Of a stretch of 64,000 bases of DNA, positions 7,611 to 53,800 are shown one piece after another. The notes under the pieces were generated by a model that saw nothing but the letters and a program-made list of their open reading frames with translations, did no database searches and was not told the DNA's origin. Every line of letters starts with the position of its first letter. The first letter of the stretch is position 1. Where the stretch lies: assembly GCA_028870995.1 (NCBI GenBank), contig JAGWOI010000008.1, forward strand, positions 3,468 to 67,467, given 5' to 3'. The position numbers were made by a program, and so were the translations under genes. Source of the stretch: Candidatus Omnitrophota bacterium. Lineage in GTDB: Bacteria > Omnitrophota > Gorgyraeia > Zapsychrales > Fredricksoniimonadaceae.

Positions 7611-7625
7611 AAGGATAAGGAGTGA

Positions 7626-8585
7626 ATGATGCCTAAGAAAACAGTACTGATTACAGGCGGAGCGGGCTTTATCGGAAGCCATCTGTGCGACCGGTTCATC
7701 AAGGAAGGCTTTAAAGTCATTGCCGTCGACAACCTGATCACCGGCAACAAGGGCAACATTGCGCACCTGGCCAAGAACAAGGACTTCCGGTTTATCAAGC
7801 ACGATATTTCCAAACCTATCCGGATACCGGGGCAGGTCCATTATGTGCTTCATTTTGCCTCGCCGGCATCACCCATCGATTATCTGCAGCTTTCCATCCA
7901 GACCATGAAGGTCGGTGCCCTGGGCACGCATAACGCATTGGGGATCGCCAAGGCCAAGAAAGCGGTCTTTTTCCTGGCCTCCACCTCGGAAGTTTACGGC
8001 GACCCCCTGGAACATCCGCAAAAGGAAACCTATTGGGGCCATGTCAATCCCATCGGGCCCAGGGGCGTGTACGACGAGGCCAAGCGCTTTGCCGAGGCCC
8101 TGACCCTGGCTTATAAAAAGGTGCACGGGATGGATGTCAAGATCATCCGCATTTTCAATACCTATGGGCCGCGCATGCGGCTTAAGGACGGAAGGGTGGT
8201 CCCCGCATTCATTGACCAGGTCCTTCACGGCAAACCTTTGACGATCTTCGGCGACGGCAGGCAGACCAGGTCTTTTTGCTATGTGGATGATCTGGTCGAG
8301 GGCATCACCCGGCTTTTGTTCTCCAAATTGACCGGTCCGGTGAACATGGGTAATCCCCGCGAGTTCACCATTCGCCAATTTGCCGACCTGGTCGTCAAAA
8401 CCCAGGGGGGCCATAAGGCCAGGATTGTTTTTAAGCCCTTGCCCAAGGATGACCCCAAGCAGCGCCGGCCGGATATCACCCAGGCCAGGACGAAACTGGG
8501 ATGGGAACCGAAGGTCCGCCTGGAAGAAGGGATCGTCAAGACGATCGCCTATTTTAAAGAACACATCAACAATGGACGAAAATAA
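7626..8585 (+). CDS. uxs: UDP-glucuronate decarboxylase (UXS-type SDR). An ArnA-C-terminal-like 4-keto-forming decarboxylase cannot be excluded.
   Basis: '[17 protein letters not shown]' and '[12 protein letters not shown]' are present, with the typical YxxxK. It lies adjacent to ugd. Confidence 0.8.
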
Positions 8586-9196
8586 TGATTACCAAGGAAG
8601 AATTGGTTGCTTTTGAAATGGATATCGCCGAGGTCTTCGCGACCGGCGTTATTCGTGCTCCGGTGCACCTGCGGGCGGGCCGGGAAGAGATGCTCATCAA
8701 AATCTTCAAGGACCATCATATCGGCGACGATGATTACGTGTTCGGTTTTTGGGATTCCCATGAGCTGGCACTTTTGAAGGGCGTGCCGCCCCAGGAATTG
8801 AAACAAGCCATCCTGGACGGCAAAAGCATATCGCTGTGTTTCCCTCAATACAAGGTTTTGTGTTCGGGGATCGTGGGCAGCCTGATGGGCGCCGCCGCCG
8901 GGGTGGCCTGGGCCCTGAAGCATCAGCAGCAAAAGGGCAGGGCTTTTTTGTTTTGCGGGGACATGTCCTCGGAGACGGGTATTTTTCATGAAGCGGTCAA
9001 ATATGTTACTAATTTCGACCTGCCCGCCGTCTTTATTGTCTGTGACAACGGGGTCAGCGTCATGACCGACACCCGCGCCGCATGGGGAAGCTCCGACCCC
9101 TGGTTTAAAGGCACCAAGTACGAAAGCAAGATCATCTATTTTAAATACACCAACGGCTACCCGCATTCCGGCCTTGGTAAACTCATCAAATTTTAA
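8585..9196 (+). CDS. TPP-dependent dehydrogenase E1 component, alpha-like subunit (short form)
   Basis: The ThDP-binding region reads 'FCGDMSSETGIFHEAVKYVTNFDLPAVFIVCDNG'. At 203 aa it is much shorter than a canonical E1 alpha. Confidence 0.6.
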   Translation: MITKEELVAFEMDIAEVFATGVIRAPVHLRAGREEMLIKIFKDHHIGDDDYVFGFWDSHELALLKGVPPQELKQAILDGKSISLCFPQYKVLCSGIVGSLMGAAAGVAWALKHQQQKGRAFLFCGDMSSETGIFHEAVKYVTNFDLPAVFIVCDNGVSVMTDTRAAWGSSDPWFKGTKYESKIIYFKYTNGYPHSGLGKLIKF

Positions 9197-9200
9197 AACT

Positions 9201-9788
9201 ATGACGACCAATACACAGCTTAAATACTTCGATGAATTAAAAAGGACCATGGAATGGCTGGCCCAGCAGCCCAAGGTGATGTTTGTGGGACAGACGGTGG
9301 CCGGACCCGGCACCTTTATGTACCAGACCCTGCGCGACTGCCCCAAGGAACGCTGCCTGGAGATGCCCATCAATGAAAGTTTCCAGATGCAGTTTACGAT
9401 AGGGCTGGCCCTGACCGGCTATGTGCCCATTTCGGTTTATCCTAGGCAGAACTTTTTGCTGCTGGCCACTGGAGATATGGCCAATATGCTTGACAAGATC
9501 CCCTTGATCTCCGGGGGGAAATGGCCGTTGAAAATGATCATCCGGGTGGCCACCGGTCCCGATGCGCCGGTGCATCCGGGACACCAGCATATCGGCAATT
9601 ATGCCAAGGCCTTCCGGGAAATGTTCAAATGGATTGAGGTGGTGGAGCTTGACAGCGCCGAGGAGATCTTCCCGGCCTACAACCAGGCCTTGAACCGCAC
9701 GGATGGCAAATCGACGATGATCATCGAGCACGGGAATTTCTATAACGAAGAATATTACGCCAAGCGGATGATCAGCACCCAGCGCTGA
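9201..9788 (+). CDS. TPP-dependent dehydrogenase E1 component, beta-like subunit (transketolase pyrimidine-binding domain only)
   Basis: 'KVMFVGQTVAGPGTFMYQTLRD...ERCLEMPINESFQMQFTIGLALTGYVPI' resembles an E1 beta or transketolase Pyr domain. The C-terminal domain is absent. It is paired with the alpha-like gene. Confidence 0.55.
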   Translation: MTTNTQLKYFDELKRTMEWLAQQPKVMFVGQTVAGPGTFMYQTLRDCPKERCLEMPINESFQMQFTIGLALTGYVPISVYPRQNFLLLATGDMANMLDKIPLISGGKWPLKMIIRVATGPDAPVHPGHQHIGNYAKAFREMFKWIEVVELDSAEEIFPAYNQALNRTDGKSTMIIEHGNFYNEEYYAKRMISTQR

Positions 9789-9792
9789 AGGT

Positions 9793-10719
9793 ATGCATCG
9801 TAATTCCAGGATATTTATCGTCGGACACAACGACAGCATTGAAAATTCCCTTAAAAGTTATTTTCAAGCCAAGGGCTTTCGCCATGCTGTTTCCAATACC
9901 CAGGACCGCATTAATGTGCTGGACCAGCTGCAGGTGGAGAAATTTTTTAAGAGTTTCCGGCCGGAATATGTTTTTTTAGGCTCCGTTCGTTCCGGCGGCA
10001 TTATCGCCAACCAAAAATTCCCGGCGGAATTTATTTATGAAAACCTGCAGGCGCAGAGTTTGGTCATTGACGCCGCCCGGGTGGCTCAGGCTAAAAAGTT
10101 ATTATATTTTTCCAGTTCTTGCGCCTACCCGGCCCTGGCCAAACAACCGATCCGGGAAACGTCTTTATTGACGGGAGCGCTGGAATCTACCAGCGAGGCC
10201 TATGCCGTCGCCAAAATAGCCGGCATTAAAATGTGCCAGGCCTACCGCGCCCAATACGGTTTTAAGTCCGTTGTGGCGGTGCCGGCCACGCTTTACGGTC
10301 CGGGCAGCGACACGGACATGGAATCCGCCCATGTGCTGGGTGCCTTGACGGCTAAATTCCATAAGGCCGCCGCCGAAGGCAACGGCGAGGTGGCGGTTTG
10401 GGGTTCAGGCCGTCCCCGGAGGGAATTCCTTTATGTGGACGACTTTGTCAGCGCCTGTGTGTTTTTAATGGAAAAGTACGACGGGCAGGAACCTGTCAAT
10501 ATCGGCTGCGGTCATGATGTGCCCATCAGGCGATTGGCCCAAATGCTCAAGAAGGTCAGCGGCTTCAAGGGGAAGATCATCTTCGATGCCTCCAAACCCG
10601 ACGGGGTGATGCGTAAACTTCTGGACAGCAGCCGCCTGCGCAGGCTGGGCTGGAGGGCGAAGGTGGGTCTGGAAGAAGGCATTGAAAAAACCTACCGCTG
10701 GTATGTAAAAAATTTATGA
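9793..10719 (+). CDS. GDP-L-fucose synthase family (Fcl/WcaG-like) sugar-nucleotide 3,5-epimerase/4-reductase
   Basis: 'YFSSSCAYPALAKQPIRETSLLTGALESTSEAYAVAKIAGIKMCQAYRAQYG...ATLYGPGSD' aligns with Fcl, and the catalytic S/C/Y/K residues are retained. The N-terminal Gly-rich NADP motif is degenerate ('IFIVGHNDSIENS'). Confidence 0.75.
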   Translation: MHRNSRIFIVGHNDSIENSLKSYFQAKGFRHAVSNTQDRINVLDQLQVEKFFKSFRPEYVFLGSVRSGGIIANQKFPAEFIYENLQAQSLVIDAARVAQAKKLLYFSSSCAYPALAKQPIRETSLLTGALESTSEAYAVAKIAGIKMCQAYRAQYGFKSVVAVPATLYGPGSDTDMESAHVLGALTAKFHKAAAEGNGEVAVWGSGRPRREFLYVDDFVSACVFLMEKYDGQEPVNIGCGHDVPIRRLAQMLKKVSGFKGKIIFDASKPDGVMRKLLDSSRLRRLGWRAKVGLEEGIEKTYRWYVKNL

Positions 10720-11939
10720 GCATCAGGCGCAAATGGCTGTGGGGACTGCTCGCAGCGGTCGTTTTTACCGGGCTTTTAGGCAGGTATTTGGACAGGGTGC
10801 CCAAACGGCATTATTGCGATTTTCGCGTGTATCATCATGCGTCCGTAAGGATGGCGGCCGGGGAGGACATTTATGTCCGCGATACCATGGCGGTAACACC
10901 GTTTAAGTATTCGCCTTTTTTTGCTTTTTGTTTTATTCCCTTAGGGCTTTTGCCCATCAAAATTGCCGCGGGCCTGTTTTTTGCTCTTAATTTTATTCTG
11001 ACCATCGTTTTATTCCGCCTGGCGGCGGATATTGCTGAAGTAAGGGCCGCCGCGGCCCGGGCCGGCGCCCTGCCGCTGCTTTACGGGTTGGCGGTTTTAT
11101 TTTCAGCAAGGTTTATTTTCCTGGTCTGGGATTCAGGCCAGGTCAATATTTTAATGTGTGTCCTGGTGCTGGCCGGTTTGATGTTGGTCTCCAAGGGTAA
11201 GGATATGCCGGCAGGGGCCTGCCTGGCCGCAGCCATATTGATTAAATATGTACCGGCCGTTTTCTTGCCGTACCTGCTTCTTCAGAAAAAGTTTAAAGCG
11301 GTTGCGTGGACCTTGGCTTTTTTGGTCATTGGACTTGTATTGCCGTCGATGGTGGTGGGAGTCCAGAAAGACATTTCTTATTTGGGCTCATGGCTGCCCT
11401 TTATTACGCAAACGTCGCTGGACAAATTATCATATATCGACATCAAAAACCAATCCTTGTTTTCGATGGTCATCCGGTCCTTCAGCGCCAGCGGCATGGG
11501 CGTCAACATCATGCATTTGAGTTTTGAGCAGGGAAAGATCCTGGGGATTGCCATTTCAGCGCTGCTTTATGCGCTGGTGTTGGTTAAGGGGAAAAGACAA
11601 CCGGGACAGGCGGGGCTTGATGCGGCCCTGCTTTTTTGCTTTATGGCTCTTTTTAATCCCAATGGGTGGGAGCTGAACTTTGTGGCTTTGGGATTGCCGT
11701 ATATATTATTGATTGGATATTTAATTGAGGTAAAATGGAAAGACTCCTTTGTGACAATGAGCGTTATAATGGCAGCGGTGCTAAGCTCTGTTTTTGCCAG
11801 GGACGTCCTCGGCAAGGTCATGGAGAATGACAGCAATCTATGCAGCAATGTAACGATCGCGACGTTGCTTTTAATTGCCGCATTGTTTCAACTTAAATTT
11901 CTAAAGATTAAATCTATTAATGGAAAGGAAGTAGTATGA
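10716..11939 (+). CDS. Polytopic membrane protein, DUF2029/GT87-like putative glycosyltransferase
   Basis: It has at least 9 predicted TM helices. The N-terminal loop 'DFRVYHHASVRMAAGEDIY...PFKYSPFFA' is similar to DUF2029 (GT87 mannosyltransferase-like) proteins. Confidence 0.5.
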   Translation: MSIRRKWLWGLLAAVVFTGLLGRYLDRVPKRHYCDFRVYHHASVRMAAGEDIYVRDTMAVTPFKYSPFFAFCFIPLGLLPIKIAAGLFFALNFILTIVLFRLAADIAEVRAAAARAGALPLLYGLAVLFSARFIFLVWDSGQVNILMCVLVLAGLMLVSKGKDMPAGACLAAAILIKYVPAVFLPYLLLQKKFKAVAWTLAFLVIGLVLPSMVVGVQKDISYLGSWLPFITQTSLDKLSYIDIKNQSLFSMVIRSFSASGMGVNIMHLSFEQGKILGIAISALLYALVLVKGKRQPGQAGLDAALLFCFMALFNPNGWELNFVALGLPYILLIGYLIEVKWKDSFVTMSVIMAAVLSSVFARDVLGKVMENDSNLCSNVTIATLLLIAALFQLKFLKIKSINGKEVV

Positions 11940-12868
11940 AGATTTTAGTGACAGGAGCAGCAGGGTATATCGGTTCCATTTTGGTGCCGCGTCTGTTGGC
12001 CGAAGGGCATGAAGTCATTGCACTTGACAACTTTATGTACAACCAATCTTCTTTGCTGGATGTCTGTTACCATGACCGCCTGACCATCGTGCGGGGCGAC
12101 ACCCGTGACAAGGCCCTGATGACCCGGCTCATGAAGGACGCCGACGCTATTTTTCCTCTGGCCTGCCTGACCGGGGCGCCTCTATGCGCCAAGGATCCCG
12201 TCGGTGCACAGACCATCCTGCTGGATGCCGTCAACATGATCCTGCAGTTGCGAAGCCGGGATCAAAGGGTCATTTTTCCCACCACCAACAGCGGCTACGG
12301 GATCGGGGAGAAAGGCAAGCACTGCACGGAAGAAACCCCGTTACGCCCCATTTCCTTGTACGGGAAATTAAAAGTCGAAGCGGAGAACGCCATCCTCTCT
12401 GCCGGCAACGGGATAACCCTTCGCCTGGCCACGGCTTTTGGGGTTTCCCCGCGCATGCGCCTGGATCTCTTGGTCAATGATTTCACCTACCGGGCCGTGT
12501 ACGACCGGTTCGTGATCCTGTTCGAGGCCCATTTCAACCGCAATTACATCCACGTGCGGGACATCGCCAAGGCTTTTATCCACGCGTTGAATAATTTTGA
12601 CAAGATGAAGAACCAACCCTATAATGTCGGCTTAAGCGACGCTAATTTAACCAAACTGCAATTATGCCAGGAAATTAAAAAACTCGTCCCCGATTTTTAT
12701 TTTGTGGAAGCCACCATCGGCGAGGACCCCGATAAGCGTGACTACATCGTCAGTAACGAAAAGATCGAAAAGACCGGCTTCAAACCTGATGTTTCCCTTC
12801 AAAAAGGTCTACAGGAATTGATCAAAGGGTATCAAGTCATCAAGCGTAACCAATTTGCCAATATTTAA
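11936..12868 (+). CDS. NAD-dependent epimerase/dehydratase (extended SDR)
   Basis: 'MKILVTGAAGYIGSILV' is a Rossmann motif and YxxxK is 'YGKLK'. It sits inside the glycan cluster. Confidence 0.75.
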   Translation: MKILVTGAAGYIGSILVPRLLAEGHEVIALDNFMYNQSSLLDVCYHDRLTIVRGDTRDKALMTRLMKDADAIFPLACLTGAPLCAKDPVGAQTILLDAVNMILQLRSRDQRVIFPTTNSGYGIGEKGKHCTEETPLRPISLYGKLKVEAENAILSAGNGITLRLATAFGVSPRMRLDLLVNDFTYRAVYDRFVILFEAHFNRNYIHVRDIAKAFIHALNNFDKMKNQPYNVGLSDANLTKLQLCQEIKKLVPDFYFVEATIGEDPDKRDYIVSNEKIEKTGFKPDVSLQKGLQELIKGYQVIKRNQFANI

Positions 12869-12874
12869 AAGCCT

Positions 12875-14389
12875 ATGAAACAGCTCGATGTTTTGTTTGT
12901 GCACGCCAACGCTTCCCGGCGGATCTACCAGGACCTGGCCAAGGACTTCTCCGCCATCGAGCCGCCCATCTGGGCGGGATTGCTGGCCGGTCATTGCCGG
13001 CTGAAAGGGTTTTCCGTCGATATTTTGGATTGCGAAGCCCTGCATCTGGATGAGGAGCAGTCCGCCAACAGCATAGCGCAGGCCAAGGCCCGCTTGGTCT
13101 GTTTTGTGGTTTACGGGCAGCAGCCTTCGGCCAGCTCCCAGAACATGGCCGGGGCAACCAGCCTGGCGGAGGCTGCCGAAAAGCTTGCCCCTGAATCGAA
13201 GATCATTTTTGTCGGCGGTCATGTGGCGGCCCTGCCGCGGGAGGTACTGGAGCGGCATCAGGCCATCGATTTTGTCTGCCAGAACGAAGGCGTTTACACC
13301 ATTTCCAATTTATTGAAGACCAACCTCAACGATCAATTGGACAAGGTGGACGGTCTTGGTTTTCGTCAGGGGGCGCAAATTATGTTGAACAGGCCTTCGC
13401 CCATCGTGGCCAAGGCCGATCTGCCCCGCGAGATGCCAGGTGTCGCCTGGGACCTGTTGCCGTCGGCCAATTACCGCACCTCGCTTTGGCATTCCTATCC
13501 GAATAATTCCATACGCCAGCCTTTCGCGGCCCTGTACACGTCCTTAGGCTGCCCCATGCGTTGTTCCTTTTGCATGATCAATATCATCAACCGCCAGGAG
13601 AATGAGTTTTCCGACGGTTCGGCGGTGTTCCGCTACTGGGAGCCGGATCATATCATCCAACAATTCGATTATTTTGCCTCCCAAGGCATCACCAATATCA
13701 AGATCGCCGATGAGCTTTTTGTGCTCAGAAGCGACCATTTCCTGAAACTCTGCGAGCTGATCATCCAGCGCGGGTATAAATTCAACATCTGGTGTTATTC
13801 CCGCGTGGACACGGTCAAGGACCAGTACCTGGCCACCCTTAAGAAAGCCGGGGTCAATTGGCTGGCCCTGGGGATCGAAAGCGGCGTCTCCAAGGTGCGT
13901 AAGGACGTCACCAAGGGGCGCTTTGAAGATGTGGATATCCGCGGCGTTGTCGCCAAGATCCGCGAGCACGGCATCAATGTCATCGGCAACTATATTTTCG
14001 GCCTGCCGGAGGATGACTTAAGCAGCATGCAGATGACCCTTGACCTGGCCATGGAGATGAATACCGAGGAGGCCAATTTCTATTCGGCCATGGCTTATCC
14101 GGGTTCACCCCTGCACGGCCTGGCCCGCAAGGAGGGCTGGAAATTGCCGTCAAGCTACGCCGGTTTCTCCCAGCATTCCTATGAATGCCAGCCCCTGCCG
14201 ACCAAGCATTTGACCGCCCAGCAGGTCCTGGCCTTCAGGGATGAGGCCTGGATGAAGTACCACACCAGCGGCAAGTTTTTGGATCTCCTGAAACAGAAAT
14301 TCGGCCAGGCGGCTGTGGATGAGACGGTCAAATCCACTAAAATCAAATTAAAACGTAAAATCCTAGAAGAGGCTTCTATCGCTCCATGA
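12875..14389 (+). CDS. B12-binding radical SAM enzyme (class B; putative sugar C-methyltransferase or radical modifier)
   Basis: It has an N-terminal cobalamin-binding-like domain. The radical SAM motif is 'CPMRCSFC' (CxxxCxxC). The length is 504 aa. Confidence 0.8.
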   Translation: MKQLDVLFVHANASRRIYQDLAKDFSAIEPPIWAGLLAGHCRLKGFSVDILDCEALHLDEEQSANSIAQAKARLVCFVVYGQQPSASSQNMAGATSLAEAAEKLAPESKIIFVGGHVAALPREVLERHQAIDFVCQNEGVYTISNLLKTNLNDQLDKVDGLGFRQGAQIMLNRPSPIVAKADLPREMPGVAWDLLPSANYRTSLWHSYPNNSIRQPFAALYTSLGCPMRCSFCMINIINRQENEFSDGSAVFRYWEPDHIIQQFDYFASQGITNIKIADELFVLRSDHFLKLCELIIQRGYKFNIWCYSRVDTVKDQYLATLKKAGVNWLALGIESGVSKVRKDVTKGRFEDVDIRGVVAKIREHGINVIGNYIFGLPEDDLSSMQMTLDLAMEMNTEEANFYSAMAYPGSPLHGLARKEGWKLPSSYAGFSQHSYECQPLPTKHLTAQQVLAFRDEAWMKYHTSGKFLDLLKQKFGQAAVDETVKSTKIKLKRKILEEASIAP

Positions 14390-15369
14390 TCATTTCGCGT
14401 ACCCCTTTCCGTGTGTCCTTTTTCGGCGGAGGCACGGATTACAACGGCTGGTTCCAGGACCATAACGGCGCTGTCCTGGCTACCACCATCGATAAATATT
14501 GCTATATTACCTGTCGTTACCTGCCGCCTTTTTTCGAACATAAATCCCGCATCATCTATTCGGTGATGGAACATGTCAAGGAATCCATTGATGAGATCAA
14601 TCACCCTTCGGTGCGGGAATGCCTGCGGTTTTTAAGGATCAATGAAGGTGTCGAGATCCACCACGACGGCGACTTGCCGGCAAGGACCGGCTTGGGATCA
14701 AGCTCGGCCTTTACCGTTGGCCTGCTCAACAGCCTGTATGCCCTCAAGGGGCAGATGGTCAGCAAGGAGAGGTTGGCCAAGGAAGCCATCCATGTGGAAC
14801 AAAGCATGATCAAGGAAAATGTCGGCTGCCAGGACCAGATGCAGGCGGCCCATGGCGGGTTTAATTTGATCGAATTCGGGGGGTCCAATCACCTGCGTGT
14901 GGTGCCGATGACCCTTCCGGCGGAAAAAATGGAACGCCTTCAGGATCATTTGATGCTGTTTTTCTCCGGTTTTTCACGCAATGCTTCCACCATCGCCAAG
15001 GCCCAGATCGACAACATCCCGCAGAAGAAGGTGGAGTTGAGCCGCATGCATGAGATGGTCCATGAGGCGGTCGAGGTCTTAAATGGCAATGACTTGTTGA
15101 AATTCGGCCGGCTGCTGGATGAAAGCTGGAAGCTTAAGCGCACCTTGTCCGATAAGATCTCCAGTCCTTACATTGATGAGCTGTATGCCACGGCCTTCAA
15201 AAACGGCGCCATCGGGGGTAAATTGCTGGGGGCGGGAGGCGGCGGATTCGTGTTGTTTTTCGCCGAGCCTTCCCGGCAGCCTAAAATACGCCAGGCGCTC
15301 AAAAACCTTCTCGAAGTTCCTTTTAAATTCGAAAATTTGGGCACGCAGGTTATCGTTTACCAACCATAA
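14386..15369 (+). CDS. GHMP-family sugar kinase, D-glycero-D-manno-heptose 7-phosphate kinase (HddA)-like
   Basis: The N-terminus 'RTPFRVSFFGGGTDYNGW' is present. The GHMP motif is 'PARTGLGSSSAFTVGLL'. The C-terminal motif is 'GGKLLGAGGGGF'. Confidence 0.75.
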   Translation: MIISRTPFRVSFFGGGTDYNGWFQDHNGAVLATTIDKYCYITCRYLPPFFEHKSRIIYSVMEHVKESIDEINHPSVRECLRFLRINEGVEIHHDGDLPARTGLGSSSAFTVGLLNSLYALKGQMVSKERLAKEAIHVEQSMIKENVGCQDQMQAAHGGFNLIEFGGSNHLRVVPMTLPAEKMERLQDHLMLFFSGFSRNASTIAKAQIDNIPQKKVELSRMHEMVHEAVEVLNGNDLLKFGRLLDESWKLKRTLSDKISSPYIDELYATAFKNGAIGGKLLGAGGGGFVLFFAEPSRQPKIRQALKNLLEVPFKFENLGTQVIVYQP

Positions 15370-15386: not shown

Positions 15387-16115
15387 ATGAGCGAAACTTT
15401 TCCAGATGTGGTGATTCTTGCCGGAGGATTGGGCAAGCGCTTGCAGTCGGTCACCGGCGGCAGGCAGAAAGTTTTGGCCCAAATCAACGGCCGGCCTTTC
15501 CTGGAGATCCTTATTGATTATATCGCCTCCCAGGGCGGCAGGCGCTTTATCCTCTGTGTCGGCCACGGGGGGCACGAGGTGGCTGCGCACTTTCTCCACA
15601 AACACCATAATGACCGGGAGATTGTTCTTTCCGTGGAAGAATCCCCTCTGGGCACCGGCGGCGCCATCAAGGAAGGGGCACGGCATGTTAAGACCGGCCG
15701 CTTCCTGGCCATGAACGGCGATTGTTTCTGCGTGATCGACTACCGGCGCTTGATCAAATTCCACCACGAGCACCGGTCCAAAGCCACCCTGGCGGTGACC
15801 TTGATGCCTGAGCCCCAAGATTATGGGACCATTGAAGTGGCCAAGACCGGCGCCATCGAGGCTTTTAAAGAAAAGCAGCCCTTGGCTGCGGCCGCTTTTA
15901 TCAACACCGGCACCTATTGTTTTGATCGCGATATTTTTTCTCTTGTGGATACGCCGGATAAATTTTCGATTGAATATGATTTTTTCCCGCATTTGGTGGG
16001 AAAAGGATTTTATGCCTTTGAAGTGGAAAACCGTTTCATCGACATCGGCACCCCGGAAAGGTATTCCTGGGCCCAACAGCATTTGGGAACATTAAGAGGC
16101 GACCATGGATTTTAA
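15387..16115 (+). CDS. Sugar-1-phosphate nucleotidyltransferase, HddC-like (heptose-1-P guanylyltransferase candidate)
   Basis: 'VVILAGGLGKRLQSVTGGRQKVLAQINGRPFLE' is an NTP_transferase motif. It lies adjacent to the HddA-like kinase. Confidence 0.75.
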   Translation: MSETFPDVVILAGGLGKRLQSVTGGRQKVLAQINGRPFLEILIDYIASQGGRRFILCVGHGGHEVAAHFLHKHHNDREIVLSVEESPLGTGGAIKEGARHVKTGRFLAMNGDCFCVIDYRRLIKFHHEHRSKATLAVTLMPEPQDYGTIEVAKTGAIEAFKEKQPLAAAAFINTGTYCFDRDIFSLVDTPDKFSIEYDFFPHLVGKGFYAFEVENRFIDIGTPERYSWAQQHLGTLRGDHGF

Positions 16116-17292
16116 TAAAACGACAGCCATCAAAGACGGCCAGGAAGCGGCTAAATCATCCTATAAAGTCCCTTTCGGAACCGTGTCCATTACACCTTAC
16201 GCCCAAGAACTGATCAATAAGGCCATTGAGCGCCGGTGGCTGACCAAGGGCCAATATGTCAAGGAATTCGAAGAGAAGTTTGCCGCTCTTTTCGGCGTCA
16301 AATACGGCATCGCGGTTTCCAGCGGCACGGACGCGGACGCGATCGCCTGCGCTGTGCTTTATGACTTCGGCGCCCGAAGGGGGGACGAGATCATTGTGCC
16401 GGCCCTGACCTTTGTGGCGACAGGCAACGCCGTGCTGCAGGCGGGGTTTACGCCGGTTTTTGTCGATGTCAAGCGGGAGACCCTTAACATCGATCCCGAA
16501 AAAATCGAGAAGGCCATTACGCCCCGCACCCGCGCCATCATGCCCGTACATTTGATGGGCAAGCCCGCGGCCATGGATGAAATTTTGGGCATCGCTCAAA
16601 AGCACGATCTCCATGTGATCGAAGATGCGGCCGAAGCCCACGGCGCGGAATATAAAGGCCGTAAGATCGGCGCCATGGGGGACATGGCCTGCTTTTCGTT
16701 ATACGCCGCGCATATCGTCACCACCATCGAGGGCGGCATGCTCATTACGAACAACGAACGGATGGCTGAGGCGGCGCGGTCCTTGCGCAATCACGGCATT
16801 GACGGAAAATTCCAATTCAAACGCATCGGCTTCTCCGCCAAGATGAACGAGATCGAAGCGGCGGTGGGGTTGGGCAATATCCGGATTTTCCATGACATCC
16901 TTGAAAAGCGCCGGGCCAACGTGCGCCACCTCATCAAGGCTTTCAAGAAATTCGACGATTATTTTTGGTACCTGAAAGAAGACAGGGACGAAGTGTTGGG
17001 TCCGCATGCCTTCTCCCTCATCCTAAAGCCAGGCCTTAATTTCACCAAAAACGAGTTTGTCACGTATTTGGAAAAACAGGGCGTTGATTCGCGCAACCTG
17101 TTTTATTCCATCCCCACTCAAACCGCCAGTTATGAATTCATGGGCCACGAAAAGGGCGATTTTCCTGAAGCCGAATACTGCTCCGACCACGGCACCCACA
17201 TCGGCTGCCATCAGGATGTCGGCATCGGGCAAATGGACCATATCATCGCAACGGTCGAAGGATTCCTCAAAGCTAAAGGGTATCGTGTCTAA
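16105..17292 (+). CDS. DegT/DnrJ/EryC1/StrS-family PLP enzyme with His in place of the Schiff-base Lys; predicted sugar 3-dehydratase (ColD/E1-like)
   Basis: The active-site segment is 'FSLYAAHIVTTIEGG'. The paralog at 23247 has 'FSFYPTKSLGACGDAG', with Lys at the aligned position. Confidence 0.65.
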   Translation: MDFNKTTAIKDGQEAAKSSYKVPFGTVSITPYAQELINKAIERRWLTKGQYVKEFEEKFAALFGVKYGIAVSSGTDADAIACAVLYDFGARRGDEIIVPALTFVATGNAVLQAGFTPVFVDVKRETLNIDPEKIEKAITPRTRAIMPVHLMGKPAAMDEILGIAQKHDLHVIEDAAEAHGAEYKGRKIGAMGDMACFSLYAAHIVTTIEGGMLITNNERMAEAARSLRNHGIDGKFQFKRIGFSAKMNEIEAAVGLGNIRIFHDILEKRRANVRHLIKAFKKFDDYFWYLKEDRDEVLGPHAFSLILKPGLNFTKNEFVTYLEKQGVDSRNLFYSIPTQTASYEFMGHEKGDFPEAEYCSDHGTHIGCHQDVGIGQMDHIIATVEGFLKAKGYRV

Positions 17293-17296
17293 GGGC

Positions 17297-18394
17297 ATGC
17301 GCATTGCCATCAATTGCAGGTCCGTTCTCATGGCCCGGCGTACGGGGATCGGACGGTATACTTACAATTTGCTTGAAAGTTTAGGCAAAATCGATAAGGC
17401 CAATGAGTATATCCTTCACGCCCCCCGGTCCTTGTTCGATTTCAAGCGCCGCCTGCCGGACTTCTCAAAATATAAGAACCTAAGGAAATATCCTGATTAT
17501 TTCAAGCGGGGGGTCAACAGGTGTGATGTTTATCATTTTCCCTGCCTGGATGATGTCAGTTCCTGTACGGGAAAGCTCATCGTCACCATCCACGATTTTG
17601 TTTATAAAACCTTTGCTCAGACACACACACCGCAGGCCGTTGAATACTTAGAAAAGCATATGCGCTTGGTGACTTCCAGGGCTGACCGCATCATTTGCAT
17701 TTCTGAGAATACCCGCAAGGACCTGCATACTTTCTTTGATATCCCCGAACACAAGTCCTGTGTTGTCTACAACGGTGTCGACCATAATAATTTTTATCCT
17801 TTGTCTGCCGCCGAGGACGGCCGGGCCGGCCATGAGCTTAGGCAGCTGGGCATTGACCGGCCTTATGTGTTGTATGTGGGCACCATTGAACCGCGCAAAA
17901 ATCTTCATGGCTTGCTAGAGAGTTTTGCGTTGCTCAAGTCGAGAAAAGCTTTTTCGGGAGTACTGGTCGTTGCCGGGATGAAGGGATGGATGATGTCTGA
18001 TGTGGGTGAAAGGATCAAGAAATTAGGAATTGAACAGGATGTAATTTTTACAGGTTTTATTAGCGACGAAACCTTACGGCTGCTTTATAATAGGGCTGAG
18101 GTTTTCGTTTTCCCTTCTTTATATGAAGGATTTGGGTTTCCTATCCTGGAGGCTTTTTGCTGCGGCACCGCGGTGGTCACCTCTTCGACGTCTTCCTGCG
18201 GTGAAGTGGCAGGGGAAGCGGCGCTGAAGACTGATCCACTGGAGCCCAAGTCCATCGCCAAGGCCATGGAACAGGTGGTGGCCGACCCGGTCCTCAAGAA
18301 ATCCCTTCGTGAGGCTGGCCTGAAGCGTGCCCGGGAGTTTTCCTTCTTAACCATGGCCCAAAGGACCCTGGATGTTTATCGAAAGATTATCTAA
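17297..18394 (+). CDS. Glycosyltransferase family 1 (GT4)
   Basis: 'EPRKNLHGLLESF' and 'FVFPSLYEGFGFPILEAFCCGTAVVTS' are present. The long ORF from 17057 is an overlap artefact, so the start is set at ATG 17297. Confidence 0.8.
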   Translation: MRIAINCRSVLMARRTGIGRYTYNLLESLGKIDKANEYILHAPRSLFDFKRRLPDFSKYKNLRKYPDYFKRGVNRCDVYHFPCLDDVSSCTGKLIVTIHDFVYKTFAQTHTPQAVEYLEKHMRLVTSRADRIICISENTRKDLHTFFDIPEHKSCVVYNGVDHNNFYPLSAAEDGRAGHELRQLGIDRPYVLYVGTIEPRKNLHGLLESFALLKSRKAFSGVLVVAGMKGWMMSDVGERIKKLGIEQDVIFTGFISDETLRLLYNRAEVFVFPSLYEGFGFPILEAFCCGTAVVTSSTSSCGEVAGEAALKTDPLEPKSIAKAMEQVVADPVLKKSLREAGLKRAREFSFLTMAQRTLDVYRKII

Positions 18395-20875: not shown

Positions 20876-22183
20876 ATGGATACCAATAAAGGTTTTGATT
20901 TCGGATGCGGCTGCGACAAGGTGGTGTTCTTTGCCTTTTGCGCCCTGATTTACTTTTTGCCCATTTCCATTGCCTTGACGGATACGTTTGCCGCACTGGC
21001 AGTGTTTTTCTATCTCCTGAAGAAAATCCACGGGCTTGTCCTTGCATGGCCAGCTCCGGGTAACAGGCTGTTTGATAAAATAAAATATACCGCCCGGGGT
21101 ATGGCCCCGGCACCCAGCATCCTGAAGCGCCCCATCGCCATCCTGGCGCTGGTGACCTTCCTGTCCGTCCTCCAAAGCCAGTTTTTAGGGGTAAGTTTTT
21201 ATGCATTTGGCGGGAAATTCTTAAAATATATATTCATCTATTTCAGTTTTGTCGAAACCTTCGTTACTCCCAAGCGGATGAAAGTTTTTGTGTGGGTTTT
21301 TTTGATTTCCGCGTTTCTTGTTTGCCTCAGCGGAGTGGCCCAGCATATCTACGGGGTGGACTTCTTGGCAGGGCGGCATTTGGCCCCGGACGGCAGGCTT
21401 TCGTCATCGTTTAAATTTCCCAACAGTTTGGGGATTTATCTGGTCGTGGTGCTGGCTGTTGTCGTTCAGCAGTTGTATGTCGAGAGTTTGAGAAAAAGGT
21501 TTTCGTGGACGCTGGGCGGATTGCTTATTTTATTGTTCCTCGCGATGTTCTGCATGACCTGGACCTTTTCCCGTGCGGCCTGGGGGGGATTTATGCTGTC
21601 CCTCTTCTTCCTGATGTTCACCGGCCGGGGCAAGATCCTTTATTTGGTTCTTCTATTGGGGCTTTTTCTGTCCTTCTCCCTGCCGCTTTTGGGCGAAATC
21701 CGGCATGTGGATTTGACGTCAAACAGTCTTCCCCATTTGGGCAATCCTTTTAATTCGATCGGGCATTTCGAAAGCATCGACCGCATCAATTTTTGGAAGA
21801 GCGCCATCTTTATCATCAAAAAATATCCGGCCCTGGGCAGCGGCTTAAATACCTATGCGCTGATGTTAAAGAAATTCTCCCTGCCTAACTGGTATGCCCA
21901 TAACGGCTACCTGCAGATCGGCGCTGAAACCGGACTCGTAGGACTGTCCTGCTTTTTATGGATGTTGTTCGTATTGTTCCGTCAGGGGATCAAGGGGATT
22001 GGCATCGGCATGGGCTCGTGGTCGAACATTCTGCTCCAGGCTGGCCTGGCTGGTTTATTGGGATTCTTAGGAGAGAGCTTTTTCGATAACTCCCTGGTCT
22101 CTGTCCAGTTGGCGGTTTTATTTTGGCTGATGACGGGTTTCACCGTGGCCGTCCTGAATTTAAACAATAAGAATGAAGGCTGA
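20876..22183 (+). CDS. O-antigen ligase/polymerase family (Wzy_C domain) membrane protein
   Basis: It has multiple TM helices. 'WTFSRAAWGG' and 'AHNGYLQIGAETGLVGL' are typical Wzy_C motifs. Confidence 0.7.
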   Translation: MDTNKGFDFGCGCDKVVFFAFCALIYFLPISIALTDTFAALAVFFYLLKKIHGLVLAWPAPGNRLFDKIKYTARGMAPAPSILKRPIAILALVTFLSVLQSQFLGVSFYAFGGKFLKYIFIYFSFVETFVTPKRMKVFVWVFLISAFLVCLSGVAQHIYGVDFLAGRHLAPDGRLSSSFKFPNSLGIYLVVVLAVVVQQLYVESLRKRFSWTLGGLLILLFLAMFCMTWTFSRAAWGGFMLSLFFLMFTGRGKILYLVLLLGLFLSFSLPLLGEIRHVDLTSNSLPHLGNPFNSIGHFESIDRINFWKSAIFIIKKYPALGSGLNTYALMLKKFSLPNWYAHNGYLQIGAETGLVGLSCFLWMLFVLFRQGIKGIGIGMGSWSNILLQAGLAGLLGFLGESFFDNSLVSVQLAVLFWLMTGFTVAVLNLNNKNEG

Positions 22184-23250
22184 TGGATTACCGCAAGATC
22201 CTTATCATCAATCCCTACGGCATCGGGGATGTTTTATTCACCACCCCCGTCATTAGAAATCTGCGTTTGGCGTTTCCCAAAGCTGCGATCGGTTACCTGG
22301 CCAATGCACGGACGGCCAGCTTCCTTAAAGCCGATGGCGATATAACCCGTGTTTTTGTTTATGAGCGCGACGAATTTGTCCAAGCCTATCGCCAGAATCC
22401 CTTAAAATTTGCGCGCAAGTGGTTTGAGCTTTTTCAAACCATTAAACAGGAGGCCTTCGACCTGGCCCTCGATTTTTCCATGAACAGCACCTTCGGATTT
22501 CTGACAGCAGCCTGCGGGATCAAGGAACGGGTTGGGTTCGATTATAAGAAACGCGGCCGGTTCCTGACTGACCGTCTTCCTTTTGAGGGTTACCAAGGGA
22601 AGCATGTCATCGAACACCAGTTGGATTTGCTGCGCTATTTGCAGATACCAGTGGCGACCAATCGCATGAGCCTCGCCATCCCTTACGGAGACATCCAATG
22701 GGCCCGCCAATGGGTCTTGCAGCAGGGTATCGACTCATCCAAACCTTTGATAGGGGTGGTACCGGGCGCCGGCGCCAGTTGGGGCAAAAACGCCGGGTTT
22801 AGGCGGTGGGCTGGGTCTAAATATGCAGAATTATTGGATAAAATTATTGAAAATTTCGACGCTGCCGTTATACTGATGGGAGATTCAACCGAACAAGAGT
22901 TGTGCAGGGACCTTGCCGTTCAAGTGCATTTTCCGCTTTATTCCGCCACAGGCCAAACCACTTTGACCCGTATGGCGGCGTTGATGGCGCGATGCCGCTT
23001 AGTCCTCGTCAATGACGGAGGGCCCTTGCATGTGGCGGTGGCCTCGGGCGTCAAGACTGTTTCCATTTTCGGCCCCCAAGACCACTTGATTTACGGCCCT
23101 TATCCTGCACAAGGCCATGTGGTGGTCAGGAAAGAGTTGCCGTGCCAGCCGTGTTACCGGCGGTTCCGCATGGCCCGCTGCGAACACATCAATTGTTTGA
23201 AAGAATTATCCGTCGAAGAAGTTTATAGAAAGGTTGCCGACATCCTATGA
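22183..23250 (+). CDS. Glycosyltransferase family 9 (ADP-heptose:LPS heptosyltransferase-like)
   Basis: The N-terminus is 'KILIINPYGIGDVLFTTPVIRNL'. The C-terminus 'VLVNDGGPLHVAVASGVKTVSIFGP' is typical of RfaF/RfaC. Confidence 0.8.
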   Translation: MDYRKILIINPYGIGDVLFTTPVIRNLRLAFPKAAIGYLANARTASFLKADGDITRVFVYERDEFVQAYRQNPLKFARKWFELFQTIKQEAFDLALDFSMNSTFGFLTAACGIKERVGFDYKKRGRFLTDRLPFEGYQGKHVIEHQLDLLRYLQIPVATNRMSLAIPYGDIQWARQWVLQQGIDSSKPLIGVVPGAGASWGKNAGFRRWAGSKYAELLDKIIENFDAAVILMGDSTEQELCRDLAVQVHFPLYSATGQTTLTRMAALMARCRLVLVNDGGPLHVAVASGVKTVSIFGPQDHLIYGPYPAQGHVVVRKELPCQPCYRRFRMARCEHINCLKELSVEEVYRKVADIL

Positions 23251-24347
23251 GTATTCCCTTCATTGATTTCAGAGAACAGAACCGCCTGATCGCCGCCGAG
23301 GTCGATACGGGCTTTAAGAAAGTATTTGAAAAAGGCGACTATATTCTGGGCGAACAGGCCCGTCTTTTTGAGGAGGCTTTCGCCCGTTACTGTGAAGCCA
23401 AACATGGCGTGGGCGTCAATTCGGGCACCGACGCGCTGCACCTGGCTTTGCTGGCGCTTGGCATCGACGAGAACGATGAAGTGATCCTGCCCACGCATAC
23501 CTTTATCGCCACGGCTTTGTGCGTCTCTTTCTGCCGGGCCAAGCCGGTCTTCGTGGATGTCGAACCGGACACTTATAACATCGATCCCGAAGCTTTCCGC
23601 AAGGCGATCACCAAGAAAACCAAGGCGGTTATCCCCGTACATATTTACGGCCAGCCGGCCAATATGGATGAGATCACCTCCATCGCCCGCGAGCACGGTA
23701 TCAAGGTCGTCGAGGACGCCGCTCAAGCGCACGGCTCCCGGTATAAGAACCGCAGGGTGGGATCATTGGGCGATGTGGCGTGCTTTTCTTTTTATCCCAC
23801 CAAGAGCCTTGGCGCTTGCGGGGATGCAGGCATGATCGTCACCAGCGATAAGGGGATTTATGAAAGGGCCCTGATGCTGCGCGATTATGGCCGCCAGGGC
23901 CGGTACGAGCATAAAATCAAGGGCACTAATTCCCGCCTGGATACGATCCAAGCGGTGATCCTTAACGCCAAGCTGAAACATTTGGACCAATGGAACCAGA
24001 TGCGCGCCAAGAATGCGGCTGCCTATGCGGAGCTTTTAAAGCCTTTGAAGGATGTGGTGGCGCCGGTGACCAAGCCGGACCGCACGCACGTCTTTCAGAC
24101 CTATGCCGTTCTTGTCCCTAACCGCGACAAGGTGATGGAGGCCATGAAGGCCCAAGGCATTGGCGTGCTGATCCATTATCCCATCGGTTTGCATTTGCAG
24201 GAGGCCTATGCGGAATTGGGTTATAAAAAAGGAGATTTCCCCGTGGCTGAGAAGGTGGCGGATCAGGTCATGAGCCTGCCCATGTTTCCCCATATGACCA
24301 GGGAACAGGTTGAGACGGTGGTGGCAGCTTTGAAAAAATCTTTATAA
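23247..24347 (+). CDS. DegT/DnrJ/EryC1/StrS-family sugar aminotransferase (canonical Lys)
   Basis: 'FSFYPTKSLGACGDAGMIVT' and 'VIPVHIYGQPANMDEI' are present. Confidence 0.85.
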   Translation: MSIPFIDFREQNRLIAAEVDTGFKKVFEKGDYILGEQARLFEEAFARYCEAKHGVGVNSGTDALHLALLALGIDENDEVILPTHTFIATALCVSFCRAKPVFVDVEPDTYNIDPEAFRKAITKKTKAVIPVHIYGQPANMDEITSIAREHGIKVVEDAAQAHGSRYKNRRVGSLGDVACFSFYPTKSLGACGDAGMIVTSDKGIYERALMLRDYGRQGRYEHKIKGTNSRLDTIQAVILNAKLKHLDQWNQMRAKNAAAYAELLKPLKDVVAPVTKPDRTHVFQTYAVLVPNRDKVMEAMKAQGIGVLIHYPIGLHLQEAYAELGYKKGDFPVAEKVADQVMSLPMFPHMTREQVETVVAALKKSL

Positions 24348-24348
24348 C

Positions 24349-25155
24349 ATGGCCCCTTTAAGTGTCGTCATCATCGCCAAGAATGAAGCCGGCCGCATCA
24401 AGGACTGCATCGAAAGTGTGCATGAATGGGCCGATGAGATCGTGGTGATCGACGATGAGAGCACCGACAACACCCGCGCCATTGCCTTGAAATACACTCC
24501 GGCCATTTACAGCCGCCGGATGGAGCTGGAGGGCAAGCAGCGTAATTTCGCCGCCTCACAGGCCAAGAACGACTGGATCATGCTCTTGGACTGCGATGAG
24601 CGCCCGACCCCGGAGCTTAAGGAAGAGATCGCGGCGGTGCTTAAAGAGCCGGATCCTAAGATCGCCGCCTATTGGGCGCCGCAGATCAATTATTTGGGCG
24701 ACATGCCGCTGCTGCACGGCGGATGGTCGAGCCCGCATATTCGTTTGTATAACAAGAATCGCATGTCATGGTCGGAAGCGGTTTATGATGTCATCCATCC
24801 GGGCATCAAGACCAAGGAAGGCTTCCGCGGAGGCCATTTGAAATCCGCCACCATCCATTATAGTTTCCGTAATGTCGAGGACCTGGTGGCCAAGATCAAC
24901 CGGTATTCGACCATGGAAGCCTTCAAGTGGTACATGGACAAACGGGATATGCCTTTGATCAAGGCTTTGTGGCGCGCCTGGGACCGTTTTTTCCGGAGAC
25001 TCGTTGCTAAAAAAGGTTACAAGGACGGTTATTTTGGTTTCGTGGCGGCGGTGGTCAGCAGTTTCAATGAGTTGGCGGTTTACAGCAAGTACAGGGAAAT
25101 GAAGGAAAAGGGACATTACCTGGACCGGTTTAAAGCCAAGGGCCTGATAGCATGA
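24349..25155 (+). CDS. Glycosyltransferase family 2 (WaaE/KdtX-like LPS core GT)
   Basis: 'LSVVIIAKNEAGRIKDCIESV...EIVVIDDESTDNT' and the DxD-like 'LDCDE' are present. Confidence 0.75.
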   Translation: MAPLSVVIIAKNEAGRIKDCIESVHEWADEIVVIDDESTDNTRAIALKYTPAIYSRRMELEGKQRNFAASQAKNDWIMLLDCDERPTPELKEEIAAVLKEPDPKIAAYWAPQINYLGDMPLLHGGWSSPHIRLYNKNRMSWSEAVYDVIHPGIKTKEGFRGGHLKSATIHYSFRNVEDLVAKINRYSTMEAFKWYMDKRDMPLIKALWRAWDRFFRRLVAKKGYKDGYFGFVAAVVSSFNELAVYSKYREMKEKGHYLDRFKAKGLIA

Positions 25156-25739
25156 AGGTCGTTTTTTTGGACAGAGACGGGGTCATCAACAAATTCCCGG
25201 GCAACGGCGCCTATGTGACCAAGGTCAAGGATTTTCATTTCATCCCCGGCTCCGTCGAAGCTATCCGGGATTTGACCCAAAGCGGGCATAAAATTTTTGT
25301 CATCTCCAACCAGGCCGGTGTGGGCAAGGGGGTTTACTCACGGCACAAACTCCAGCGCATCGACGCCAAAATGATCAAAGGTGTCGAAAAGGCCGGCGGC
25401 AGGATCCGCAAAAGCTTTTATTGCACCCATCGTTCCGACGCCGGCTGTGATTGCCGCAAGCCCGGCATAGGGATGCTTAAAAAAGCCTTGAAGTCCCTCA
25501 ACAAGACCATTGCCCACGCCCAGAAGGCCTTTTTCGTCGGCGACACCGAGGGAGACATCAAGACCGGGCATAATGCCGGTTGCAAGACCATTTTTGTGCT
25601 TTCAGGCCGGGAAAACCGCCGGTACATGCGCAAGTGGACCGTCAAACCCGATCATATCGTCAAGGATTTGAAGGCCGCCGCTTCGATCATTCAACATGCG
25701 AATTCTAATCATTCACGCAACAGCCGGCGCGGGGCATAA
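25152..25739 (+). CDS. gmhB: D-glycero-D-manno-heptose 1,7-bisphosphate phosphatase (HAD-IIIA)
   Basis: 'VVFLDRDGVIN' is HAD motif I. 'VISNQAGV' is present. The zinc-binding region is 'CTHRSDAGCDCRKP'. 'VGDTEGD' is present. Confidence 0.8.
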   Translation: MKVVFLDRDGVINKFPGNGAYVTKVKDFHFIPGSVEAIRDLTQSGHKIFVISNQAGVGKGVYSRHKLQRIDAKMIKGVEKAGGRIRKSFYCTHRSDAGCDCRKPGIGMLKKALKSLNKTIAHAQKAFFVGDTEGDIKTGHNAGCKTIFVLSGRENRRYMRKWTVKPDHIVKDLKAAASIIQHANSNHSRNSRRGA

Positions 25740-29441: not shown

Positions 29442-29558
29442 AAATAGGGAGAGCTTCCTATTTAATGATATAATTTCGTTTATGGCCGCTTTCGCTGCAA
29501 TAAAAATTAAGGAAAGCGGCACTTTGAATCAGTGGAAAAGCTTAATGGAATTTTAAGG

Positions 29559-35533: not shown

Positions 35534-35538
35534 AATTT

Positions 35539-40546: not shown

Positions 40547-40561
40547 AGTTTAAGGAAAAAC

Positions 40562-53798: not shown

Positions 53799-53800
53799 AT

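Follow-up and report, generated by a model that had tools for sequence, protein, structure and literature searches.

A His-type DegT-family protein of Omnitrophota as a putative GDP-4-keto-heptose C3-dehydratase in a conserved sugar gene module

Introduction

Within the DegT family, the exchange of the Schiff-base lysine for a histidine is the main difference that sets the sugar 3-dehydratases E1, ColD and SpnQ apart from the aminotransferases, and this histidine serves as both general base and general acid (PMC8987622). Two modes of 3-deoxygenation have been described for these enzymes: E1 and SpnQ hold a [2Fe-2S] cluster on four cysteines and require a reductase; ColD relies on glutamate and hydrolysis (PMC8987622). 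Here, we analyze a His-type member of this family that is encoded at positions 16105..17292 (+ strand; 395 aa, ATG to stop) of a 64,000-nt stretch of DNA from Candidatus Omnitrophota bacterium (GenBank assembly GCA_028870995.1, contig JAGWOI010000008.1, positions 3,468 to 67,467), referred to below as the window. Judged from its sequence and genomic context, this target protein is probably a ColD-like C3-dehydratase, which would depend on pyridoxamine 5'-phosphate (PMP) and glutamate and would act on GDP-D-glycero-4-keto-heptose.

To our knowledge, only one clade of His-type DegT enzymes, that of ColD, E1 and SpnQ, has been characterized. The ColD-type enzymes include the C3-dehydratases of Campylobacter jejuni HS:5 and HS:11, and the HS:5 enzyme is 62-67% identical to ColD of Escherichia coli and Yersinia (PMC10440746). 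Cj1427 is a C4-dehydrogenase that oxidizes GDP-heptose and keeps the 6-OH (PMC10680097). In combination with a ColD-type C3-dehydratase, it was found to give GDP-D-glycero-3-deoxy-4-keto-heptose in vitro, with the dehydratase making the α-ketoglutarate that the dehydrogenase consumes, and the products were called novel (PMC10680097). Products of 3-dehydratases can also be branched further: YerE adds a two-carbon branch to CDP-4-keto-3,6-dideoxyglucose, which is such a product (PMC9306805), and a like branch was proposed to be added by AviB1/AviB2, two-subunit enzymes resembling pyruvate dehydrogenase (PDH; PMC4753412).

A histidine at the Schiff-base position

The target protein is a full-length member of Pfam family PF01041 (DegT_DnrJ_EryC1; E = 1.7e-102, 343.8 bits against a cut-off of 19.8), its residues 34-384 covering profile positions 8-359/360. 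It contains the segment FSLYAAHIVTTIEGG, which includes His203 (codon CAT, 16711..16713, + strand; preceded by Ala202) and which was paired by phmmer against the PDB with FSFFGNKIITTGEGG of GDP-perosamine synthase (3bn1/3dr7). This alignment places His203 in the column of the Schiff-base lysine, which in GDP-perosamine synthase is Lys186, the residue changed in PDB entry 3dr4 with the title “K186A.” In a BLASTP comparison with the GDP-6-deoxy-4-keto-heptose C3-dehydratase of C. jejuni HS:5, whose sequence was taken from the supplement of PMC10440746, the same segment was aligned with FSTFFSHHMATMEGG, and His203 fell on the first histidine and Ala202 on the serine (30% identity over 355 residues). 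A preliminary description of this DNA had stated that a histidine replaces the catalytic lysine and had proposed an alignment with a characterized Campylobacter C3-dehydratase; the replacement is confirmed, and His203 lies on the catalytic histidine of the Campylobacter enzyme without offset. Thus, the lysine column of the S-x-x-x-x-K signature of DegT aminotransferases is occupied by a histidine in the target, and the residues Asp174 and Ser198, which bind pyridoxal 5'-phosphate (PLP), are kept. A lysine-bearing paralog, likewise pointed out before, is indeed encoded downstream at 23247..24347, where the corresponding segment reads CFSFYPTKSLGACGDAG and the lysine is specified by AAG at 23802-23804.

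The target is 100% identical to an NCBI entry from a Candidatus Omnitrophica MAG. Among its 120 best homologs, which are 76-87% identical to it, histidine is present at position 203 in 120/120, and at least 118 of them share the same residue at 198 of the 395 positions. His203, Asp174, Ser198 and Glu177 are invariant throughout. A scan with one genome per species yielded 42 loci (68-88% identity), essentially all of which belong to Omnitrophota-type metagenome-assembled genomes (MAGs). In view of the histidine in all 120 homologs and of the 42 species-level loci, the substitution is fixed and under strong selection, and it reflects neither chance nor a sequencing error. The loss of the canonical lysine would in principle also fit a catalytically dead DegT-like scaffold or a regulator. 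This explanation is extremely improbable, given that the four residues named above and half of all positions are invariant in 120 homologs and that the same substitution marks known active dehydratases. The conservation pattern is best read as showing strong selection on an active enzyme.

The residue in front of the catalytic position differs between proteins with histidine and proteins with lysine. In a set of 69 His-type proteins, residue 202 is alanine in 52 and serine in 12 cases (Ala/Ser in 64/69), whereas the equivalent position in 45 Lys-type proteins is held by asparagine in 22 and by threonine in 11 cases. With Ala202, the target shows a small residue before the histidine, as do the ColD-type enzymes with their serine. 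For ColD, the double mutant S187N/H188K was reportedly needed to obtain transaminase activity. Among the covarying columns, Glu177 is present throughout the His set without exception; His230 (64/69) and His369 (62/69) are enriched in it, and both of them are common to the target and the Campylobacter enzyme. The earlier statement that the Lys-to-His exchange defines the dehydratases is in agreement with the literature (PMC8987622) but needs to be qualified, as this exchange is not the sole change that matters and residue 202 and other positions covary with it.

A further basic residue was noted in the loop HLMGKP. Its Lys153 is invariant in the family of the target, and the equivalent position carries lysine or arginine in half of the His-type proteins and histidine or glutamine in the Lys-type proteins. 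Lys153 may lie close to the active site and compensate there as a basic residue.

Relation to aminotransferases and known 3-dehydratases

A neighbor-joining tree of the 69 His and 45 Lys proteins was calculated with 200 bootstraps after removal of the catalytic column and the column preceding it. These proteins were drawn from the 150 best representatives of 50%-identity clusters, of which 91 carry histidine and 56 carry lysine at the catalytic column, and the sample is biased to the query. The tree contains a single bipartition that has the 69 His proteins on one side and the 45 Lys proteins on the other, without exception (152/200 bootstraps). In this query-biased sample, the target is located on the His side together with ColD/E1-like proteins, but outside the ColD/E1-like clade; with the representatives P0122 and P0123 it forms a separate deep clade (175/200 bootstraps). 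RfbH is the best NCBIfam model for the clade that holds the Campylobacter enzyme (343-406 bits). By this tree, which was obtained without the catalytic columns, the target appears to share one broad His-type clan with ColD and E1, where it would occupy a deep branch without a characterized member. An independent origin of the histidine from a perosamine-synthase-like ancestor is not favored by this tree, the support for which is moderate.

A 3-dehydratase activity in the clade of the target would widen the known sugar 3-dehydratases by a large unannotated group; the 91 His-bearing representatives are spread over several deep clades. In databases, His-type relatives are named “aminotransferase” or “dTDP-4-amino-4,6-dideoxygalactose transaminase.” Among the His-type DegT representatives P0124, P0125, P0168, P0169, P0223, P0138, and P0191, some were found to be fused to GT2 or GT4 glycosyltransferase domains, one of them to a methyltransferase as well, and two are interrupted by inteins.

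In searches against the PDB, GDP-perosamine synthase and the transaminase 7b0m reached 216-225 bits with the target, and the chains of ColD and E1 ~150-157 bits. A DegT fold was confirmed by Foldseek for the AlphaFold2 model of the target (predicted local distance difference test score 83), with sugar transaminases and GDP-perosamine synthase as the top matches (34-36% identity; 34% for GDP-perosamine synthase) and 26-27% identity for E1 and ColD. GDP-perosamine synthase (3bn1/3dr4) and the transaminases 7b0m/7b0d (metagenomic, archaeal) share the motifs IEDAAEA and TT-x-EGG with the target at a TM score of ~0.8, but differ from it in possessing an Asn-Lys dyad and an internal aldimine and in their position on the Lys side of the tree. 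The named aminotransferase equivalogs of NCBIfam (PseC, LegC, WecE, ArnB, and DesI) all remained far below their cut-offs, the best of them being PseC with 244.5 bits against 423.5.

Sugar transaminases and GDP-perosamine synthase rank first in both the sequence and the fold comparisons, as would be expected of an aminotransferase without an internal aldimine, to which PMP/PLP is bound non-covalently and which turns GDP-4-keto-heptose into 4-amino-4-deoxy-heptose, similar to SpnQ without its reductase. The His-type SpnQ does transaminate with PLP and glutamate, whereas ColD and E1 were without such activity under the same conditions (PMC8987622). The conserved region around the target already contains a gene for a Lys-type aminotransferase, and the target shows the covarying residues of the His set instead of an Asn/Thr-Lys dyad and was placed among the His proteins in the tree, all of which renders a transaminase function of the target rather unlikely. 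The Lys-type paralog at 23247..24347 (+ strand; PF01041 at 3.4e-127; motif FSFYPTK) was placed on the Lys side of the tree. It is, by these features, of the true aminotransferase type and could aminate a 4-keto sugar of the same pathway.

At the same time, the target is not an ortholog of ColD or E1. In the case of ColD, this conclusion is based on the 30% identity to the HS:5 enzyme and on the lack of a GMD-type gene in the window. The suggestion of the preliminary description that the protein is a C3-deoxygenase such as ColD or E1 therefore stands with regard to the His side of the tree and the small residue 202, but not in the sense of orthology to either enzyme (30% identity; 235 bits to RfbH).

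ColD-type versus E1-type mechanism

E1 carries three of its four Fe-S cysteine ligands in the region that matches residues 197-358 of the target. The only cysteines of the target are located at positions 82, 196, 359, and 368, with none within 197-358, and an E1-type Fe-S motif was sought in the sequence but not found. All four cysteines are conserved in the close family; Cys196 and Cys359 vary across the wider His set. Genes for an E3-like reductase or a ferredoxin were detected neither in the surrounding gene module nor among the scanned larger open reading frames (ORFs) of the 64-kb window. As both the E1-type cysteine pattern and a reductase or ferredoxin gene among the scanned ORFs are missing, a ColD mechanism is favored over an E1-type mechanism for this predicted dehydratase.

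A reductive 3-deoxygenase of the E1/SpnQ type, employing an Fe-S cluster plus a separate reductase or ferredoxin, would be consistent with the histidine at the catalytic position, with the conservation of all four cysteines in the family and with RfbH as the second-best NCBIfam match of the target. However, the best stretch of the RfbH match ends at target residue 233, which corresponds to profile position 253 of 440, and together with the distribution of the cysteines and the lack of a reductase or ferredoxin gene in the module and the scanned ORFs this makes such an enzyme very unlikely. Compared to E1 (DdhC/RfbH/AscC) and SpnQ, the target has the histidine in place of the lysine and a predicted PMP-dependent C3 deoxygenation in common, but differs in the absence of the [2Fe-2S] cysteine motif and of an E3-type reductase gene, in its length (395 aa versus ~437 aa) and in its GDP-sugar neighborhood, as opposed to CDP or dTDP. 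In Yersinia, the product of E1 is the acceptor of a branching enzyme that depends on thiamine diphosphate (ThDP), and ThDP genes are syntenic with the target gene, too.

The ColD-type enzymes, including those of C. jejuni HS:5 and HS:11, agree with the target in their DegT fold, in the histidine after a small residue and in the absence of an Fe-S motif. A GDP-linked substrate is likewise expected for the target, and its PMP would probably be regenerated from glutamate. The gene cluster of the target includes one for a GDP-fucose-synthase-like reductase, comparable to ColC for colitose. The target differs in its identity of only ~30%, its separate deep clade and its motif, which reads AAHI versus SHH in the ColD-type enzymes. 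In addition, its partner is a Cj1427-like C4-dehydrogenase versus a 4,6-dehydratase of the GMD/DmhA type, so that the 6-OH should stay in place.

Substrate and proposed reaction

The short-chain dehydrogenase/reductase (SDR) encoded two genes upstream in the module (11936..12868, + strand) aligns with the 313-aa C. jejuni SDR P0271 at 58% identity and without gaps, and scores 401 bits against PDB 6vo6/6vo8. P0271 represents a cluster of 439 members from C. jejuni with a length of 313 aa, the cluster nearest to the chain of 6vo6, and is 96% identical to this chain, which we take, in agreement with the title of a structural paper, to be Cj1427, the GDP-heptose C4-dehydrogenase. A putative NDP-4-keto-sugar-making enzyme is thus co-encoded with the target in ~30 loci as well as in the locus of a 53%-identical relative, and the SDR would supply the 4-keto substrate to the target. 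A 4,6-dehydratase of the GMD type was not found in the 64-kb window, whose three SDRs are a UXS-type, an Fcl-like and a Cj1427-like protein. The first of these (7626-8585), for which dTDP-glucose 4,6-dehydratase is the best NCBIfam match, was ruled out as a 4,6-dehydratase on account of its 357 bits to human UXS1 and its position behind a UDP-glucose dehydrogenase gene.

Since a 4,6-dehydratase is lacking in the window and a Cj1427-like oxidase is encoded instead, the expected substrate would keep its 6-OH and is probably not a 6-deoxy sugar. The substrate named in the preliminary description, a GDP-4-keto-6-deoxy sugar and possibly a heptose, is retained insofar as the neighboring genes point to GDP-heptose; its 6-deoxy character is not. 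A GDP-linked substrate is also in line with the closest solved folds, which include the GDP-sugar enzyme GDP-perosamine synthase.

In the proposed pathway, the Cj1427-like enzyme would oxidize C4 of GDP-heptose and leave the 6-OH untouched, so that the substrate of the target would be made within the same operon. Because His203 replaces the Schiff-base lysine, the target would not form an internal aldimine. Instead, L-glutamate would first convert PLP to PMP, which would then form a ketimine with the C4 carbonyl of GDP-4-keto-heptose. His203 would take the C4' proton, the 3-OH would be expelled, and hydrolysis of the enamine would release GDP-D-glycero-3-deoxy-4-keto-heptose and ammonia and bring back PLP.

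The in vitro combination of Campylobacter enzymes (PMC10680097) resembles this arrangement in that a C4-dehydrogenase, a His-type dehydratase and an Fcl-like reductase are involved, all of which are syntenic in the case of the target. While the in vitro combination was an artificial mix across serotypes, the combination described here is natural, phylum-wide and joined to genes for ThDP-dependent and B12-binding radical SAM (B12-rSAM) enzymes. The pairing with a Cj1427-type enzyme predicts a natural route to D-glycero-3-deoxy-heptoses, which so far were made only by mixing enzymes in vitro. A literature search for natural 3-deoxy-heptoses returned only in vitro work, and a search on lipopolysaccharide or heptose of Omnitrophota returned nothing relevant.

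Conserved gene order and predicted product

To assess synteny, the window proteins were compared by tblastn with every retrieved locus. In ~30 Omnitrophota loci, corresponding to about 30 species, the genes for ThDP-alpha, ThDP-beta, Fcl-like SDR, C4-dehydrogenase, B12-rSAM enzyme, GHMP kinase, nucleotidyltransferase and His-type DegT protein follow one another in this order on one strand, with 60-92% identity. In these module loci, the B12-rSAM gene is always located between the C4-dehydrogenase and the kinase genes. The most conserved partner of the target is the C4-dehydrogenase homolog. In the locus of P0122 (L051), which is 53% identical to the target, a five-gene core is kept, consisting of the C4-dehydrogenase, both ThDP subunits, the radical SAM enzyme and the His-type DegT protein. 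In the locus of P0123 (L052), an Fcl-like gene is located upstream and a radical SAM fragment downstream.

The ThDP pair consists of a minimal alpha-like subunit (E1_dh, PF00676 at 6e-13; 203 aa, 8585..9196, + strand) with the cofactor motif GDM...DNG and a minimal beta-like subunit (Transket_pyr, PF02779; 195 aa, 9201..9788, + strand), the start of which was set at the ATG that fits the lengths of its homologs (194-195 aa). In the PDB, the two subunits score 25-29 bits to PDH E1 alpha and 25-30 bits to PDH E1 beta, respectively. A Transketolase_C domain was not found in the pair with Pfam, and the two proteins may form a minimal sugar-branching carboligase. The two-subunit, PDH-E1-like architecture is shared with AviB1/AviB2 of avilamycin and Pau11/Pau12 of paulomycin biosynthesis. 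With ~200 aa, 25-30 bits to PDH E1 and no Transketolase_C domain, the subunits of the window nevertheless differ from these proteins and from YerE/YerF of the yersiniose/erwiniose pathways. Moreover, the route of the target would start from a GDP-heptose versus the CDP- or dTDP-hexose of the yersiniose/erwiniose and avilamycin/paulomycin pathways, and it includes an extra B12-rSAM enzyme.

Two continuations are conceivable for the 3-deoxy-4-keto product. The Fcl-like enzyme could reduce and epimerize it directly, following the logic of the colitose route, in which ColC reduces C4. Alternatively, the ThDP alpha/beta pair could first add a two-carbon branch at C4, following the logic of yersiniose and AviB1/AviB2. 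The B12-rSAM enzyme would add a further modification.

The ThDP pair and the B12-rSAM enzyme stay with the His-type DegT protein even where the kinase and transferase genes do not lie between them, and genes for a UDP-glucose dehydrogenase (UGD) and the UXS-type decarboxylase are located directly upstream. This gene content would also suit a PMP-dependent eliminase or deoxygenase acting on another intermediate, such as a ThDP-branched or rSAM-modified sugar, a 3-keto sugar or a UDP-4-keto-pentose from the adjacent UGD and UXS. However, human UXS1, which the UXS homolog resembles, releases UDP-xylose and not a 4-keto sugar, and in some loci the UXS homolog is split from the module by other genes, whereas the C4-dehydrogenase homolog is retained even next to the 53%-identical relative. 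As the known ThDP branching enzymes accept a 3-deoxy-4-keto sugar, the dehydratase is placed before the ThDP step, and an activity of the target on one of the other intermediates is considered unlikely.

Several observations nevertheless weigh against a C3-dehydratase of GDP-4-keto-heptose. The highest-scoring solved relatives of the target are aminotransferases, its identity to the ColD-type enzymes is only ~30%, and the RfbH model (E1; NCBIfam NF011936) is matched with 235.3 bits against a cut-off of 423 and in two separate stretches. The clade of the target is without any characterized member, and the tree is rough, with deep branches, 76% support and a sample from the 150 best representatives. 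With regard to the substrate, the HddA-like and HddC-like proteins of the module score far below their equivalog cut-offs, so that a higher sugar other than the heptose could be the activated one, and the scanned window ORFs include no GmhA (SIS domain). Lastly, the ThDP and rSAM enzymes might act before the target, whose substrate would then be a different intermediate.

Taking the gene module as a whole, we tentatively propose that the His-type DegT protein, the ThDP pair, the B12-rSAM enzyme and the Cj1427-like enzyme might jointly build an undescribed C4-branched (acyl or hydroxyalkyl) 3-deoxy-D-glycero-heptose, possibly C-methylated and of nine carbons or larger, as a conserved core component of the Omnitrophota envelope. 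The target would then stand for a large lineage of sugar deoxygenases separate from ColD and E1. This is a possibility that we hold with clearly less confidence than the dehydratase function itself. The colinearity of the ThDP and B12-rSAM genes suggests that the envelope of this widespread and mostly uncultured phylum carries a new branched higher sugar.

The location of ThDP enzymes beside a heptose C4-dehydrogenase is a recurring theme, as both are also paired in a Nitrospirae MAG (JACRGX010000024.1; locus L048, 8218-19419). There, a Cj1427-like gene is accompanied by genes for a nucleotidyltransferase, a GHMP kinase, a SIS isomerase, two SDRs, full-length PDH-E1-like alpha and beta subunits, a Methyltransf_13 C-methyltransferase and a split transketolase; a His-type DegT gene is not present in this cluster. 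It may constitute another branched-heptose pathway.

Further genes of the module and the window

The genes for UDP-glucose 6-dehydrogenase and UDP-glucuronate decarboxylase (6282-8585), located directly upstream of the module, suggest that UDP-xylose is provided for the same glycan region. Within the module, the ThDP genes are followed by the gene for the Fcl-like SDR (9793..10719, + strand), an epimerase/4-reductase of the Fcl/ColC/Cj1428 type that reaches 381 bits with the NCBIfam model Fcl (cut-off 500) and, in the PDB, 298 bits with 1bsv and 216 bits with 7m13/7anc. A gene for a GT87-family glycosyltransferase (10716-11939) is inserted between those for the Fcl-like SDR and the C4-dehydrogenase. 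It was found at this point only in the present window, while other loci are empty there or contain a transposase (L001, 3138-4289), and the gap between the two genes looks like a variable insertion point in an otherwise fixed module. The B12-binding radical SAM enzyme (504 aa; 12875..14389, + strand) shows the Pfam domains B12-binding and Radical_SAM and the motif CPMRCSFC at aa 226; its best NCBIfam model is HpnJ, with 143 bits far below the cut-off.

Two genes for sugar activation precede the target gene. The GHMP kinase (14386..15369, + strand; Pfam GHMP N and C domains) is HddA-like (146 bits, cut-off 600) and finds its closest PDB counterparts in the heptose kinases 3k85, 4n3o, and 4usk. 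The sugar-1-phosphate nucleotidyltransferase (15387..16115, + strand; Pfam NTP_transferase) is an HddC-like putative guanylyltransferase (139.5 bits, cut-off 300). In the PDB, it is matched best by 5xhw/6jq8 (HddC, annotated as “6-deoxy-D-mannoheptose pathway protein”; 133 bits) and next by GDP-mannose pyrophosphorylases. The HddA-, HddC- and Fcl-like neighbors recognized in the preliminary description were thus recovered as the top NCBIfam match in each case, all three below the respective equivalog cut-off. Directly downstream of the target, a GT4 glycosyltransferase is encoded (17297..18394, + strand; Pfam Glycos_transf_1/Glyco_transf_4), which is present but divergent in other loci (37-45% identity).

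A second conserved block (22183-26784) comprises genes for a GT9 heptosyltransferase-like protein, the Lys-type DegT paralog, a GT2 glycosyltransferase, a GmhB-like heptose 1,7-bisphosphate phosphatase and a GT28 protein resembling monogalactosyldiacylglycerol synthase, and its synteny extends to most Omnitrophota loci. The GmhB-like phosphatase (25152..25739, + strand; NCBIfam PRK08942, 159.7 bits against a cut-off of 178) is conserved in the loci.

Outside of these blocks, two tandem, slightly overlapping genes for galactose-1-phosphate uridylyltransferase-like proteins are located at 29532-31521. Two adjacent efflux operons of the resistance-nodulation-division (RND) type, with genes for membrane fusion proteins (MFP) and outer membrane factors (OMF), are found at 39389-45072 (MFP-RND-OMF) and 46364-55207 (MFP-RND-RND-OMF), with the gene for a MarR-type regulator (38925-39398) just upstream. 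The window further encodes an Elm1 (“mitochondrial fission”) family protein (32634-33587; 302 bits) and a protein with the C-terminal domain of inward-rectifier K+ channels (35506-36447), both of which are unusual annotations for a bacterium.

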